A stretch of DNA of 41,278 nt from a virus (Duplodnaviria > Heunggongvirae > Uroviricota > Caudoviricetes), in IMG/VR virus record IMGVR_UViG_3300014682_000025; one strand, written 5' to 3'. Shown here one piece after another: positions 3,308-35,728 of the stretch. Numbering within the stretch: position 1 is the stretch's first letter; each line of letters begins with the position of its first letter. The translations under genes were made by a program, and so were the position numbers. Under the pieces are notes generated by a model. It saw nothing but the letters and a program-made list of their open reading frames with translations. It ran no database searches and was not told where the DNA came from.

Positions 3308-3883
3308 CTACGGCAGTGCTGGCCATTCAATATCCTGTGCAGTTGACGTATCAACACGGTTCAGCAATACCCGATACTTTTTCCATGCTTCCAGCAACGA
3401 GATTTCTTCCTCCGTTGCAATTTCCAGATCTGCAGCATCCTGAAGCGGCGCAATATGCTCACTGGCTACCTGCATCAGGTTGTTTTTTGTTTCTTCCGCC
3501 TCCCGGATCCGGAACAGTTTTTCTGCTTCCGTATCCTTCACCCAGGCTGTGCCGTTCCACTTCTGAAACTCCCCTTCCGGGGATAACCAGGTGACATTTT
3601 CCGGTAATGGGCCAAGTTCAGAAATAAATAACGCGTCGCCGGAAGCCACGTCATAGACGGTTTTACCCCGATGATCTTCAACGAGATGCCACGATGCCTC
3701 ATCACTGTTGAAAACAGCCACGAAGCCAGCCGGAATATCTGGCGGTGCAATATAGGAACTGTTTGCTGGCAGACCTGTATGAGGCGGAATATATGCGTCA
3801 CCTTCACCAATAAATTCATTAGTTCCTGCCAGCAGATTATAAATTTTTATGGTCCGTGGTTGTTCACTCATTCTGAATGCCAT
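3308..3883 (-). CDS. tfa: Tail fibre assembly protein Tfa, 191 aa
   Basis: N-terminus [24 protein letters not shown] matches lambda Tfa; start overlaps stf stop (ATGA). Confidence 0.85.
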
Positions 3884-7528: not shown

Positions 7529-10845
<3,317 letters not shown>

Positions 10846-12907: not shown

Positions 12908-13237
12908 CTATGCCACGACCTGTTCAAAATCTGCCGTTATGGTTACCCACAACGCCCCCACGCTTGCCGACCATTTACGACAAACCACCCTGATCGGCTT
13001 CCAGTCATAAGGTGGCGTCCACTGAAATGCGCGGACGCCACCGTGCCGTTCCAGAAAGGCTTTTAAAGATGGGTGTTCACATTTACGAACACGTATCGTC
13101 ACGCTGTAAATCGACAACTGGTTATTCAGTCCCGCCGCACGACGCTGTTCATAACCATCGCCCAGCTTCACTGTCACCACTTTCGGCTCTGATACCACAT
13201 TCATATCCGGGCGCACTTTCCAGTGAAACGTCTCCAT
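12908..13237 (-). CDS. M: Minor tail protein M
   Basis: 109 aa; position between H and L; lambda-gpM-like. Confidence 0.85.
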   Translation of the reverse strand: METFHWKVRPDMNVVSEPKVVTVKLGDGYEQRRAAGLNNQLSIYSVTIRVRKCEHPSLKAFLERHGGVRAFQWTPPYDWKPIRVVCRKWSASVGALWVTITADFEQVVA

Positions 13238-16200
13238 TACCGATATGCTCCACTTAACCGACCACCATCACGGGCCTGCTGTTGCATAAAGTCCGCTGCC
13301 GCTTTTTTCCCAAGGTCATAAACCACCTTCAGGGCAGCCGGACCTATCTGCCCGTTCGTGCCATCGTTATTGATCTCGATGTTGTACTGCGGGGCAAACA
13401 TCGCCATACCTGAACCACCAATATCCGCCACAACCCCCAGCTTACCGTCAGCACCACGACGCAGTGGCAGAATGGCTTCAGGTCCCGCTTCCCCCATCAC
13501 ACCCGCGCCTTTTGCAAAAGCAAAAAACGTCGGACGGTTAACCACCGTGCCACTGTAACGACTCAAATCAGCAGACTGATAAATCCCCCCATTGGCATTC
13601 AGGGAAAGGCTGCTGAGATCAAATCCCAGCACACTGCCAATCCCTTTTATCGATTTCATCATGGTTGCCTGCGCCAGGATTTTCGCCATATCTGACAGCA
13701 CAGAAGAGGTGAAGGATTTGAAATTGAGTTTGCCGGTAGTGACAAAAGTTGCCAGGCCATTTCCCATGTTGCTGAAGGCTGACGAGAACACCTGTTCTGC
13801 TGTTCCTGCCGTATTATCTGCATCCACGGTAAAATCCTGAAATGCACGCAGGACTCCGTTTTTCCAGTTACCCTGCACAACTTCAAGCTGTTGCCAGTAA
13901 CGGCGATTCTCATTCAGTTGTCGGTTCAGGCTCTCCGTCAGCGCCTGCTCGGCCTTTCTGTAGTCATCCGTGTTATATGTTCCTTTCTGCTCACTATCCC
14001 GCCTCAACTGCTCCAGCTGTTGCTGGTATTTCTGGCGAAGACTCAGTTGTACCTGATATCGCTGCCGCTGCTGATCACCCATACCCACCGTGGCGATATC
14101 CAGGTCATGTTGCTGACGCTGAGCGCGCTCTTCTTCAGCCAGTTGACTGGTCAGCTGAATTGTTTTTTTCTTCAGCTCGTTGAGTGCCGTCTGTTTCTGA
14201 AGCTCCTGCTGTTTTACATCCAGCAGCGTCAGTGCCTGAATCAGTTCATCTTTACGGGCCAGCACACTCTTTTCATCTGCCGTCAGTTTTTTCCCGTCCA
14301 GGTCGCTGATGCGCTGCTGCAGAGCCAGAAGCTGTTTATGCGCTTCTGTCATCCTTTCCGTGGCAATGCCTGCTGACTGTCTGGCAGCAGCAATCTGTCC
14401 TTCCACCTGTGCCTGTTGCTGACTGTACTGCAGCAATAACCGGGTGGCCTCATCATTACGGGGTTCGCGTGTTTTTTTCTTACCGGATGCCAGGGCTTTC
14501 TCGTAACGTTCATTTTCACGTTGTATCGCTGCATCCCTGACAGCCTGATCGGCGTACTGCATGGCATTAATACGCGCAATTTCACGCTGATGTCGTGCAG
14601 CTTCCGTTTCATTCATCCGGTTCAGTGCAGCATTTTCAGCATTACGGCGTTTCTGTTGCTCCTGATAATTCCGCTCTGCCTGCTCTTTTGCATCCTGCAA
14701 ATCCTTCTGGCGTTTTTTCTCCTGAAGATCGTTAAGACGCTGCTGATCGTATTCAACCTGAGAAGATGATGCCGTCCAGGGGAGTCTTTTCGCCCGCGAC
14801 ACTTTCTCCTGCAAAGTGGCAATCTGCGCATCCAGCGAATCTTCACGACCAATATTCATGGCCGCATCCCAGAACAGCTTCCACCAGTCAGACAAGGTTT
14901 GCAGCGTACTACCCAGCGCATTGAGGTTATTATCAATATCCGCAGTACGCCGTCCGGTTTCCTCTGCCAGTGCAGACATGGCTATCCGTGCAGCATCACT
15001 GGACCGCCCCTGCTCTCCAAGGACGCGTATCTGCTCAAGCTGAGTGGCAGTAAGAAAATGCAGCTCATTGTCCAGAGACTTCGCGGCATTTACAGGATCA
15101 TCCTTCAGCCGCTTAAACTGATTTATGGTATCGCTGACCGACTGGCCAACCGATCGCTCCATCTGTGCGGCAGCTCTCGCCACCATACCGATATCGTTTC
15201 CACGAAATGCACCACTCCCCACCACCTGAGCCAGCGCACCGGCTGCAGCATGTTGCGTGATACCATTCCCGGAAATAGTACGACTGAGCGTCCACAGCTG
15301 CCCGGCAGTGACTCCGGCATAATGCCCCGTCAGCGACAGCTGGCGGTTAAATTCTTCCCCCTCCTTCTGACCGTCATACCAGGCTTTACCCAGACCATAG
15401 ACGGCCGCGGTAATACCGCCAATAACCCCGCCCAGCATCATGCCTTTCGGTGACATCAGTGTGTCTATCCATCCGGCACGGTTAGCCAGCGTTATCCCGG
15501 ATCCCCTCAGCGCCCCTAAATTGCCGCGGGCCAGTTCACCTATCAGAACGCCTATCTCCTGGCGGGCCGCTGCACTTTTCAGACCCAGCGAATGCGTGGC
15601 TTTTCCTGCCCGCTCCATTTTGCGGATATACACTTCTGCAGCACTGCTTACCCCCAGCTGGGCAGCCCTGGCACGAAGCAACTCAGAAGAAGAAAGATTC
15701 TGGCGGGTTGCCTGCTCTTTAAGCTGACGGATAAACGCCACTTTCTGTCGGGTAGCCTCTGCCTCAGCCTGCGTAAGAACACGGGTTTTCGCCGTAACCT
15801 CAGAAATCAGCGCCAGATAATCCTGCTGACCAATCCCGCCACTGTTTCTGGCCTGTCGGATCTGCTGCTGAATACGCTGTAATTCCTGCAACCCCGCACT
15901 GGCCTGTTTCACACTGTCAATCTGACGATAAAACGCGGCAGCCGCTTTATCCTGAGCCTCCGCCAGAGCCATGGCCTGCGCCTGTTCCTCGCGCATTTTC
16001 TGGCTCAGTGCCTCCATACGCTGGCGGGTTTGCTCCACCTCGCGGGCCATGCGTTCATGAGCCTGTGCGCTCTTCTCCACCGTCTGCGCATGGACGGATG
16101 CGGCTGTTGCAGCCGAAGACGCCGCCTGCATTGTCTGCCGGGCGGCCTGAGTCTGACGCTCCATAAAACGCTGCATACGGGCAGAAGACCGTTCTGCATC

Positions 16201-16302
16201 GCTGGCTGCACCATTCAGAAGGTTTTTGATACGGGGAATTTCATTTTTAAACTCTGCCGCATCAATCCCCAAATCAATGACCAGGTTGGCTATCTGGTCC
16301 AT
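13237..16302 (-). CDS. H: Tail tape measure protein H (about 1021 aa from MDQIANLVIDLG)
   Basis: Long coiled-coil-rich ORF (track 13237-16332); C-terminus INNDGTNGQIGPAALK is lambda-gpH-like; start chosen by similarity to lambda H N-terminus. Confidence 0.85.
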   Translation of the reverse strand: MDQIANLVIDLGIDAAEFKNEIPRIKNLLNGAASDAERSSARMQRFMERQTQAARQTMQAASSAATAASVHAQTVEKSAQAHERMAREVEQTRQRMEALSQKMREEQAQAMALAEAQDKAAAAFYRQIDSVKQASAGLQELQRIQQQIRQARNSGGIGQQDYLALISEVTAKTRVLTQAEAEATRQKVAFIRQLKEQATRQNLSSSELLRARAAQLGVSSAAEVYIRKMERAGKATHSLGLKSAAARQEIGVLIGELARGNLGALRGSGITLANRAGWIDTLMSPKGMMLGGVIGGITAAVYGLGKAWYDGQKEGEEFNRQLSLTGHYAGVTAGQLWTLSRTISGNGITQHAAAGALAQVVGSGAFRGNDIGMVARAAAQMERSVGQSVSDTINQFKRLKDDPVNAAKSLDNELHFLTATQLEQIRVLGEQGRSSDAARIAMSALAEETGRRTADIDNNLNALGSTLQTLSDWWKLFWDAAMNIGREDSLDAQIATLQEKVSRAKRLPWTASSSQVEYDQQRLNDLQEKKRQKDLQDAKEQAERNYQEQQKRRNAENAALNRMNETEAARHQREIARINAMQYADQAVRDAAIQRENERYEKALASGKKKTREPRNDEATRLLLQYSQQQAQVEGQIAAARQSAGIATERMTEAHKQLLALQQRISDLDGKKLTADEKSVLARKDELIQALTLLDVKQQELQKQTALNELKKKTIQLTSQLAEEERAQRQQHDLDIATVGMGDQQRQRYQVQLSLRQKYQQQLEQLRRDSEQKGTYNTDDYRKAEQALTESLNRQLNENRRYWQQLEVVQGNWKNGVLRAFQDFTVDADNTAGTAEQVFSSAFSNMGNGLATFVTTGKLNFKSFTSSVLSDMAKILAQATMMKSIKGIGSVLGFDLSSLSLNANGGIYQSADLSRYSGTVVNRPTFFAFAKGAGVMGEAGPEAILPLRRGADGKLGVVADIGGSGMAMFAPQYNIEINNDGTNGQIGPAALKVVYDLGKKAAADFMQQQARDGGRLSGAYR

Positions 16303-16626
16303 AACGCACACCTCCGGAAATACCTTCCCCAAGATGCATCAGTTCTTCGTCCGTTCGCTCCGGTATCCCGTTCTCTTCCGGTAAAAGGCTGAAATCAGCC
16401 ACCGCAGCATCACTGCTGCCGGACACCATTCTCACGATCAATGCCTTCAGCGAGGCAAACTGCGCATCCATCCACACATCACTGAAGCTCTGCATCCGGA
16501 AATAATCGCCCCACTCACCAAGCTCAGTGGCCGACATTTCCGACAGCATCCGCCGCCAGTCTGCCCGCCGGAACTCCCGGGCAAGCCGCATGACAAACTG
16601 CATTTCCCGCGTCAGGACTTTTCCGG
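16274..16626 (-). CDS. T: T portion of the tail assembly chaperone G-T (-1 frame relative to G, expected to be made by frameshift)
   Basis: T frame is open from about 16636 and overlaps the 3-prime end of G in the -1 frame; a GGAAAAG heptamer lies in the overlap. Confidence 0.6.
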
Positions 16627-17001
16627 CGTCAGCACCTCATGCTCCAAATCCCCGGCATTCTCAATGGCTCCCATACCGCTCAGCGACAGAACCATCTCCG
16701 CCCCCGCTCCCAGGGCATCATACGACCATGTTGTAATAACGGATGCGCAAAGCGTCTCAACATCCTGAGACTGTTCCGCATTCCACAGTGAGCGGGAAAC
16801 CAGCCAGGCATTGATATCCATCCCCATCCGCAGAAAAGCAATCTGTCGTTCAGCCTCCGGCAGTTCTCCCTCTTCGGCATCAAACTTTGCCGTTCGCTGC
16901 TGAACAAACGCCAGATATTCAATTCTCTGCAGCCCGGACAGCTCACTGAGCACCACGGACTGCTTTTCATAATTAAACGTGCCCTGTTTCAGAAACATCA
17001 T
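16612..17001 (-). CDS. G: Tail assembly chaperone G
   Basis: ATGATG start at 17001 preceded by GGTGGAG; track ORF begins further upstream at a non-ATG codon; position after V. Confidence 0.8.
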   Translation of the reverse strand: MMFLKQGTFNYEKQSVVLSELSGLQRIEYLAFVQQRTAKFDAEEGELPEAERQIAFLRMGMDINAWLVSRSLWNAEQSQDVETLCASVITTWSYDALGAGAEMVLSLSGMGAIENAGDLEHEVLTPEKS

Positions 17002-17014
17002 GTTCTCCACCTGC

Positions 17015-17038
17015 AAAAAAGCCCCTGATAACCGGGGC
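17015..17038 (-). terminator. Hairpin (GCCCC...GGGGC) followed by T6, between V and G
   Basis: Read from sequence; possible partial terminator that sets the V to G/T/H ratio. Confidence 0.4.
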
Positions 17039-17058: not shown

Positions 17059-17802
17059 TTAACCTGCGGCGCTGACAGCCACCGTAGCCACTGCCACAAA
17101 ATCGCCGTCAGAAGTCATGCCCACAATGCTGACACTGCCCTGCTTCACGCCTTTCACCGTGGCCACAAGCCCGTTCAGGGTCACCGTGGCAGTCTGTGGA
17201 TCTGTCGAATGCACGCTGATCGCTTTGTCACTGGCTCCGTCAGGTTTTACTGTAAAGGTCAGCGTGGTGGTTGCTCCCACTTTTACACTGGCAGATGCCG
17301 GTGCCACCGTCAGCCCGGTAACGCTCACTGTTTCAGTGCCTTCCTCTGCCAGATACGGACGCCCAACACCGCTGATTTTCACTGTGCGGGTCATCACGTC
17401 TTTTGAGGCAATGGTTTTACCCAGTGAGCTCAGCCAGCCACGGAAAACATCAACAGTGCCGTTGGGATATTTGATACGAAACGCGCAGACTTCACCGGAG
17501 TCGAACAACTGAACCAGTTTTTTCTGCCCGCTGTCACCCGGACGCCAGGCCAGCGTCGCCGAAGTATCACCAACGGATTTCTGCCCCTGGGTTGTCGTTT
17601 TCCAGTCTGCATCTTCATCATCGAGATAAGTGTCATCTTCTGCATCAGCGGTCATTTCGCCAGGTTGCAGATCCTTCACCATCGCAAGACGCAGCCAGTC
17701 AGTGTCCGACAAAGGGTTCGCAAACGCATCGCCGTTGCCGGTATACATCCAGAACGTCGTCCCCGCACCTTTCGTCTTTGCCAGTGGATTTGGTGTGGTC
17801 AT
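17059..17802 (-). CDS. V: Major tail protein V (247 aa from MTTPNPLAKTKG) with C-terminal Ig-like domain
   Basis: Internal ATG at 17802 preceded by AAGGAGGT; C-terminal segment is Big_2-like. Confidence 0.85.
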   Translation of the reverse strand: MTTPNPLAKTKGAGTTFWMYTGNGDAFANPLSDTDWLRLAMVKDLQPGEMTADAEDDTYLDDEDADWKTTTQGQKSVGDTSATLAWRPGDSGQKKLVQLFDSGEVCAFRIKYPNGTVDVFRGWLSSLGKTIASKDVMTRTVKISGVGRPYLAEEGTETVSVTGLTVAPASASVKVGATTTLTFTVKPDGASDKAISVHSTDPQTATVTLNGLVATVKGVKQGSVSIVGMTSDGDFVAVATVAVSAAG

Positions 17803-34908: not shown

Positions 34909-35064
34909 TTACTCCTCAGGTTCGTAAGCTGTGAAGACAGCGACCTCCGTCTGGCCGGTTCGGATTCGTACCTCGCAGAGGTCTTTCCTCGTTACCAGTG
35001 CCGTCACTATGACGGTTAAACAGATGACGATCAGGGCGATTAACATCGCCTTTTGCTGCTTCAT
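34909..35064 (-). CDS. hokD: Hok-family type I toxin (51 aa; MKQQKAMLIALIVICLTVIVTALVTRKDLCEVRIRTGQTEVAVFTAYEPEE)
   Basis: Canonical Hok peptide; track ORF 34909-35121 extends upstream in frame. Confidence 0.85.
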   Translation of the reverse strand: MKQQKAMLIALIVICLTVIVTALVTRKDLCEVRIRTGQTEVAVFTAYEPEE

Positions 35065-35728
35065 AGCCTGCTTCTCCTTGCCTTTCGGCACGTAAGAGGC
35101 TAACCTACATATGTCTAGCATGAAATTGGCCTCAGATTAATGTTAAGCGTCTTGCAGGACGCGTAATGTTAACTGGGGCTTTTCTCTATCTGCCGTTGGT
35201 GTTCATGCCTGAGGCAGATAGCCTCAAGCACCCGCAGCAATTCTACTTAACTCCCGTCACCTCGCCAATATAAAATCAATCAGAAAGGCGATCCGTAAGA
35301 ACAACAGCAAGACAATAAATTGCCATTACAGCCGCAATAGCTAGCGCACATTTGAGAACCAGCACGACAACCTCCTGTATTGGATATACACCTGCCCTGA
35401 TAAATATGAGGCTGTCTCGTCAGTGCTTCAATACAACTATTGGGTATAGTTTCTGTGATTTTGTTCTGTAGAAATGGAACACAACAACCAGTCACCACCA
35501 ACTCTTCTTTAAATACGCCAAGTCCGACGTAAGCTAACCTTCTAGTCCGCTTTGAGCGAAAGGCGAACACTGGCAATTAGCCCGTAACTATTGAATATAT
35601 TACTAATGACCCTGTTATCGGCACAAATATTTCAGAAGACATAAAAATTACTTATTAATAGAACCAATAAGTATTAACTGAATAAAAAACCTTAAGGCAT
35701 CATCTAAATCTTATATTGCACTTTAACA

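Follow-up and report, generated by a model that had tools for sequence, protein, structure and literature searches.

G_GAA_AAG as the probable -1 frameshift site joining tail genes G and T in an mEp460/cdtI-type lambdoid prophage

The question raised by this locus is how the T reading frame, which lies in the -1 frame behind the tail assembly chaperone gene G, comes to be translated, and whether an A-rich heptamer that differs from the lambda site could bring ribosomes into it. The window, that is, the whole stretch of 41,278 nucleotides of viral DNA that was analysed (IMG/VR record IMGVR_UViG_3300014682_000025), carries the tail genes concerned on its minus strand. Directly upstream of G the ORF list places the major tail protein gene, the homologue of lambda V (17059..17802, minus strand), which is recorded as major tail protein or gpV homologue for mEp460 and Gifsy-1, and whose start is placed at 17802 on the basis of the 744-nt CDS in the mEp460 annotation. 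Between V and G, a terminator scan detected an intrinsic-terminator-like hairpin, GCCCCGGTTATCAGGGGC followed by TTTTTT (17015..17038, minus strand), at the position of a rho-independent terminator or stem-loop in the annotations of mEp460, N15, HK225 and Ayreon; this hairpin would lower the transcription of G, T and H relative to V. On the far side of T lies the tape measure protein gene, the homologue of lambda H (13237..16302, minus strand; ORF list, with the mEp460 and PGAP annotations), which shares its first 29 nt with the end of T and has GGAGG before its ATG at 16302. A rho-independent terminator annotated inside T in mEp460 maps to 16383-16400 (minus strand; GGCTGATTTCAGCC then TTTT), just upstream of the tape-measure start, and was missed by the simple terminator scan.

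Both reading frames belong to known tail assembly families. The G protein matches the Pfam family PF06894 (Phage_TAC_2) with E = 1.8e-39 and 134.9 bits (cut-off 27), and the T frame matches PF06223 (Phage_tail_T) with E = 5.1e-15 and 56.1 bits (cut-off 25.9). In BLASTP comparisons with lambda, G aligned with lambda G at 33% identity (4e-16) and T with lambda T at 38% identity (5e-27). In the ORF map as well as in the annotations of mEp460, Gifsy-1 and a RefSeq E. coli genome, the pair is flanked by the major tail gene and the tape-measure gene, and the gene order V-G-T-H is that of the mEp460 and RefSeq E. coli annotations. These matches and its position mark the G/T pair as genuinely homologous to lambda G/T. 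Over an 811-nt region, identity with phages phi458, Ayreon, cdtI and mEp460 is 97.7-99.6%. Of 5426 complete E. coli genomes, 1848, about a third, carry the module, and the window is a lambdoid prophage of the common mEp460/cdtI type. At greater distance, the GT proteins of N15, phi80 and HK225 share 36-38% identity with that of the window, and Gifsy-1 is closer at 58.9%.

Translation gives a G protein of 129 aa, encoded at 16612..17001 (minus strand) from ATG 17001 to the stop TGA at 16614..16612 and ending in ...LEHEVLTPEKS; in the PGAP annotation it begins at the following codon, 16998. The T reading frame, -1 relative to G, extends over 16274..16636 (minus strand) with its stop at 16276..16274, and as the nearest stop on its 5' side is the TGA at 16639..16637, it is open from 16636. 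Both frames are thus open over 25 nt, or about 8 codons (16612..16636, minus strand), according to the two translations and to a frame-agnostic overlap listing, which bears out the extent that the sequence-only reading had given to the overlap. Read 5' to 3' on the minus strand in the frame of G, the region is GGG GAT TTG GAG CAT GAG GTG CTG ACG CCG GAA AAG TCC TGA CGC GGG AAA TGC AG, the last codons of G being those from CAT to TGA. From 16636 the T frame reads GGT GCT GAC GCC GGA AAA GTC CTG ACG CGG GAA ATG, and its translation begins G-A-D-A-G-K-V-L-T-R-E-M-Q-F-V-M-R-L-A-R-E-F. The heptamer G_GAA_AAG (16618..16624, minus strand) places GAA (Glu) in the P site and AAG (Lys) in the A site, and after a -1 slip these positions hold GGA and AAA. 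Inspection of the sequence showed it to be the sole re-pairable site in the 25-nt overlap after such a slip; the sequence-only reading had named it as the only A-rich candidate there. The other codons of the overlap (GTG CTG ACG CCG ... TCC) were considered as shift sites and discarded, since none of them allows its tRNA to re-pair one base back; TCC_TGA looks like a +1 site, but slipping in that direction misses the T frame.

We suggest, with a probability of a little under 0.9, that slippage on G_GAA_AAG yields a G-T fusion and sets the G:GT ratio for tail assembly. The reading of the G/T site as a programmed -1 frameshift is supported by homology and by strong comparative evidence, all of it at the level of sequence. 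According to this proposal, a small share of the ribosomes translating G would slip by -1 at 16624..16618 (minus strand) and continue in the T frame, giving a 242-aa GT fusion (...L-T-P-E-K-V-L-T-R-E-M-Q-F...) with the T part as its C-terminal 115 residues; most ribosomes would terminate two codons past the site and release G alone, at 129 aa. Homology with lambda suggests that the tape-measure protein would then be covered by many copies of G and a few of GT, that the major tail protein would be recruited through the T domain, and that the frequency of the shift would fix the ratio of G to GT. The slip would most likely be a tandem one, in which the A-site tRNA-Lys (mnm5s2UUU) moves from AAG to its cognate AAA and the P-site tRNA-Glu moves from GAA to GGA, keeping the C36:G and U34:A pairs and tolerating U35.G in the middle position. 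We infer that the fusion is made, the frequency at which it is made, and that the slip is of the tandem and not of the single-tRNA kind.

A close reference point for this proposal is lambda itself, where the proven G/GT site G_GGA_AAG (Levin, Hendrix & Casjens 1993) joins homologous G and T domains in the V-G-T-H order shared with the window. The lambda G gene ends TCT GCG GGA AAG TGT TCG ACG GTG AGC TGA, so that the lambda heptamer is as the sequence-only reading had given it, and the two sites, CGGGAAAGT against CGGAAAAGT, are one G-to-A transition apart. When the G-T fusion proteins of the window and of lambda were constructed and aligned, the Gly-Lys of lambda and the Glu-Lys of the window fell in the same alignment columns, with the junction Lys-Val conserved; the comparison with the lambda junction that the sequence-only reading had proposed thus puts both heptamers on the same codon pair. 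The start of the T domain, E-L/M-x-F-x-h-K/R-L-A-R-E, follows the junction at equal spacing in the two proteins. Lambda therefore resembles the window in having T in the -1 frame, a short overlap, the same codon pair, AAG in the A site, G as the first base and a Lys-Val junction. It differs in four respects. The P-site codon is GGA (Gly) in lambda and GAA (Glu) in the window; re-pairing in the P site involves a wobble-position pair in lambda, whereas the window needs U.G in the middle position; the stop codon of G comes five codons after AAG in lambda and one codon after it in the window; and a covarying stem from about 5 nt downstream is found in lambda but not in the window.

Whether the heptamer deserves to be called non-canonical, as it had been in the sequence-only reading, depends on the standard applied. 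Measured against lambda and against the X_XXY_YYZ rule the description holds: the first three bases are G, G and A instead of being identical, and tRNA-Glu must accept U.G in the second position, in keeping with the G-U pairing that had been predicted for the P-site slip and with the reasoning given for the same re-pairing in PMC6924986. The A-site half of the rule, cognate re-pairing from YYZ to YYY, does apply, AAG and AAA being read by a single E. coli tRNA-Lys. Within its own family the description does not hold, since G_GAA_AAG is the majority form (23 of 27 lineages). The first six bases, GGAAAA, also fit the 'twofour' class of PRFect (XXYYYY, two identical bases followed by four identical ones), which its authors took from annotated tail assembly chaperone frameshifts that have no XXXYYY motif; the class is purely pattern-based, with neither experimental validation nor base-specific rules behind it.

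The heptamer itself is already known in kind. In phage N15 (genes 14/15; AF064539) the same G_GAA_AAG occurs in the same frame, at the same position and in the same gene family, and the record carries a misc_feature at 10027..10033, GGAAAAG, described as 'slippery sequence for -1 translational frameshift', with gene 15 given as 'downstream half of translational frameshift product'. Phages phi80, HK225 and Gifsy-1 agree with the window in heptamer, frame, position and gene family; in Gifsy-1 the entire local string, cacgccGGAAAAGtcctga, is identical to that of the window, and its record states that the T homologue is made 'by translational frameshifting'. The variant is therefore not new but of the N15 type. 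A full-text literature search for GGAAAAG together with 'frameshift' returned unrelated papers only. A table of G/T-like slippery sequences is said to be contained in a 2004 Mol Cell paper by Xu, Hendrix & Duda, and NNA_AAG hexamers were reportedly treated by Licznar and colleagues in 2003.

How strongly the site has been maintained was addressed with two samples of very different depth. The scan of viral contigs recovered 80 relatives, all at least 95% identical, and the presence of GGAAAAG in every one of them is uninformative on conservation. Diversity came from a scan of bacterial genomes, one per species, which gave 69 loci down to about 30% identity. Loci with GGAAAAG were found in Escherichia, Shigella, Kosakonia, Symbiopectobacterium, Xenorhabdus, Leclercia, Serratia, Erwinia, Proteus, Kluyvera, Atlantibacter, Enterobacter, Citrobacter, Buttiauxella, Phytobacter, Yokenella and others, and the named phages with this heptamer include Providencia PSTCR8lys besides N15, phi80, HK225 and Gifsy-1. 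The overlap listing showed GGGAAAG to be limited to the lambda clade, E. albertii, a Serratia/Symbiopectobacterium clade and Edwardsiella. In a neighbour-joining tree built from 79 distinct fusion proteins, most carry GGAAAAG, and GGGAAAG occupies three branches; GGAAAAG is probably the ancestral state in the G/T family. More distant G/T relatives in the Vibrio phages K245 (L159 701-707) and HY01 (L160 710-716) have a canonical heptamer, C_CCA_AAA, in the corresponding place two codons ahead of the stop of G. Another variation is seen in four Proteus loci (L096, L100, L102, L103) and in the Providencia phage PSTCR8lys (L161 666-678), where the stop codon of G directly follows the heptamer (G_GAA_AAG_TAG); such a 'shifty stop' could favour a slip of tRNA-Lys in the P site while termination is pending.

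For a test of selection we used 27 lineages with less than 85% nucleotide identity to one another. The A-site codon is AAG in all 27, a codon that accounts for 24% of Lys codons in E. coli (PMC3296357, Table 2). In the P site only two codons occur, GAA in 23 lineages and GGA in four. A replacement of Glu by Gly is a radical amino-acid change. This alternation in the protein, together with the invariance of G_GRA_AAG in the RNA, is what a recoding signal predicts. The codon before the P site is GCG in 15 lineages, CCG in 8 and CTG in 4, and the first base of the heptamer is accordingly G in 27 of 27, though it is the wobble base of an Ala, Pro or Leu codon. GCG, CCG and CTG are common codons in E. 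coli, and a preference for codons ending in G could account for part of this conservation. The linker just upstream of the heptamer is hypervariable and acidic. By mere frequency the motif does not stand out in the window, where GGRAAAG occurs 15 times against an expectation of 12.7 +/- 3.7 and is not over-represented. Its significance lies in its context: it is in frame, inside the overlap, on the codon pair homologous to that of lambda, and invariant in diverged relatives amid a hypervariable linker.

Three other accounts of T expression have to be set against tandem slippage. Under one of them, which seems very improbable, T would be a gene in its own right, with translation starting at ATG 16603, and no functional frameshift would exist. 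An ATG is present in frame at this position, and the database records of the clade are unanimous in their treatment of T: it is called as a separate CDS in the mEp460, cdtI, Ayreon and RefSeq/PGAP records and the GT fusion is omitted, with the start at ATG 16603 in mEp460 and PGAP and further downstream in Ayreon. The sequence around the ATG offers little to this account, however, since the only element upstream is GGGAA, 2 nt away, which makes no usable Shine-Dalgarno sequence, and since the corresponding column reads CTG, CGT, CAT or GTG in relatives, the ATG being absent in most of them, lambda and N15 included. The T frame, moreover, is open back through the heptamer in 143 of 143 loci examined in the frame-agnostic overlap listing, and lambda T sequence is produced only within GT, at least in the summary of Levin et al. 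(1993) given in PMC5009743. ATG 16603 is probably not a real start of T. Even less credit can be given to slippage of RNA polymerase on the run of four consecutive A residues at the site, by which mRNAs lacking one A (or, equivalently, gaining two) would yield GT by standard translation; the bacterial cases occur at runs of about 9 A or T (PMC5009743), for which four residues are far too short, and the conserved flanking G_G and final G would be left without a role.

The account that comes closest to the tandem slip concerns only its mechanism, as it predicts the same GT product. Here tRNA-Lys alone would re-pair from AAG to AAA. It could do so in the A site, where tRNA-Glu in the P site need only let go of the last base of GAA (the 'hexanucleotide' type, NNA_AAG), or in the P site, with the following codon still pending. 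We regard this as rather unlikely, though with more in its favour than the two accounts above. No tetramer in E. coli is more prone to shift than A_AAG, and even C_AAG reached 0.93% with a pseudoknot (PMC4066793); a single-tRNA mechanism on A_AAG aided by the preceding tRNA is also described in the literature as far as it is summarised in PMC10861913. The U.G re-pairing in the middle position that the tandem slip requires is considered unfavourable (PMC6924986), and in the Proteus and Providencia relatives with TAG directly after the heptamer a slow stop would favour the slip of tRNA-Lys in the P site. What speaks against a slip of tRNA-Lys alone is the pattern of constraint further upstream, for it would restrict neither the choice between GAA and GGA nor the first G, yet the P-site codon is limited to these two and the base before it is G across codons for three amino acids. 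The tandem slip does predict an invariant first G, which pairs with C36 of tRNA-Glu. Tetramers also require a strong stimulator (PMC4066793), and none is evident in the clade of the window.

G_GGA_AAG is among the three best heptamers in E. coli, and the tetramer A_AAG, barely above background in vivo without a stimulator (about 0.15%), rises to 5.6% with the IS3 pseudoknot (PMC4066793). The sequence AUG GAA AAG gave mainly the 0-frame product in a reconstituted E. coli system (Peng et al. 2019, PMC6924986), where it was termed 'unfavorable for slippage' and 'less slippery' than G GGA AAG, a weakness explained by the second-position mismatch of tRNA-Glu on GGA; mutants of EF-G altered shifting on both sequences in the same direction. 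The thermodynamic study of dnaX frameshifting took in no second-position mismatches, and its model has not been extended to position 1+2 mismatches (PMC6787027). The lambda G/GT shift proceeds at about 4%, and the efficiency at the window's site may be well below this figure or may be raised by its context. As no conserved downstream RNA structure was found in the clade, an efficiency well below that of lambda is possible. The dnaX site of E. coli, A_AAA_AAG, shares with the window re-pairing from AAG to AAA by tRNA-Lys in the A site and a Shine-Dalgarno-like element about 10 nt upstream. What sets dnaX apart is that its heptamer re-pairs fully, that a strong stem-loop lies downstream and that it shifts at about 50%, in contrast to the near-cognate P-site re-pairing, the absence of an evident stem and the expected frequency of a few percent or less at the site of the window.

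An upstream stimulator might be provided by a Shine-Dalgarno-like GAGGTG (16633..16638, minus strand), formed by the G codons GAG GTG and lying 8 nt upstream of the heptamer. Within it, GAGG (16638..16635) ends 10 nt and AGGTG (16637..16633) 8 nt before the heptamer, equivalent to 11 and 9 nt before its second base, which falls within the operational definition of such stimulators (Sharma et al.). A core of GAGG or GGAG exactly 10 nt upstream of the heptamer was found in 7 of 26 diverged lineages, and at no other in-frame spacing between 4 and 22 nt in any of the 26; the loci sharing the offset of the window are L091, L093, L095, L111, L122 and L141. At the protein level, the same position coincides with a conserved Glu five codons upstream, in the motif E-x-x-x-x-[EG]-K. 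Because of this coincidence with a conserved Glu codon, we propose GAGGTG as no more than a hypothetical 5' stimulator.

On the 3' side, folding of the window revealed neither a hairpin nor a pseudoknot, stable and conserved, with its start 4-10 nt past the motif, and z scores of -0.27 (80 nt) and -1.07 (98 nt) indicate nothing significant downstream. When seven sequences from the clade of the window and its nearest relatives were folded as an alignment, the consensus energy came to -3.6 kcal/mol and no helix fell close to the site. The single hairpin close by, TCCTG-ACG-CGGGA, was rejected as a stimulator, as its spacing of 0 from the site would put it inside the ribosome. No Rfam family matched in or near the G/T region at gathering thresholds. 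Elsewhere in the window, at the same thresholds, matches were obtained at 3342-3540, 28216-28601, 31112-31504 and 35059-35233 (all minus strand), comprising IS009 RNA, two thermoregulator leaders of the cspA type (cold-shock-like genes) and a sok antitoxin RNA (hok/sok-type module); none of them has to do with the frameshift site.

A different situation is evident in lambda, N15, phi80 and related lineages, for which a structure of about 75 nt is predicted with z = -2.9 to -4.8, its outer 10-bp stem beginning 5 nt after the heptamer. The stem-loop lies at 1222-1296 of the lambda locus (L002) and at 714-788 of the N15 locus (L152), and is also present in HK225 and many enterobacterial prophages. 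In alignment A2, columns 13-22 pair with 78-87 and inner helices join 41-56 with 61-76. Covariation was tested on a gap-free alignment of 34 sequences, in which columns 16/84 covary (AU 12, GC 10, CG 3, GU 2), as do columns 18/82 (CG 11, UG 10, GU 4, AU 3, UA 2), both being pairs of the outer stem with compensatory changes, and pairing reached 74% overall compared with 25-43% in slid controls. The 3' arm of the stem falls in the conserved M-L-A-G codons of T. A stem of the lambda/N15 type cannot form in the clade of the window. The phages with the same heptamer thus differ in what surrounds it: N15, phi80 and HK225 have the long-range downstream stem (z -3.7 to -4.2) without the upstream Shine-Dalgarno-like element, whereas the clade of the window and Gifsy-1 are without the downstream stem.

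The main value of these findings is practical, in that the T gene should be annotated as a ribosomal-slippage join at 16619/16621; its annotation as a separate CDS is probably a systematic error affecting the roughly one third of complete E. coli genomes that carry the module. What is known of tail assembly is left unchanged, the site being a textbook G/GT recoding site with an N15-type heptamer. The mechanistic point is a modest one, namely a natural and strongly conserved heptamer whose re-pairing in the P site requires U.G in the middle position. As the one direct test of it found the heptamer weak (PMC6924986), this raises the question of how a sequence that is weak in vitro became the standard of its family. 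Our tentative answer, which we hold to be possible but on balance doubtful, is that G_GAA_AAG, a poor control in vitro, is nevertheless the dominant and probably ancestral site of the lambda-type G/T family in enterobacteria, which would mean that U.G in the second position of tRNA-Glu is tolerated in vivo and that different clades tune a weak heptamer by different stimulators. If this is true, P-site tRNA-Glu (mnm5s2U34) would tolerate the mismatch in vivo sufficiently for selection to act, as the invariant first G supports; the group of lambda, N15 and phi80 would tune the heptamer through the covarying stem-loop of about 75 nt that begins 5 nt downstream, and the stemless mEp460/cdtI clade through the Shine-Dalgarno-like GAGG 10 nt upstream. 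Since both of the slipping tRNAs carry an MnmA-dependent 2-thio modification, the site might also rely more on the tRNA thiolation of the host than that of lambda does.
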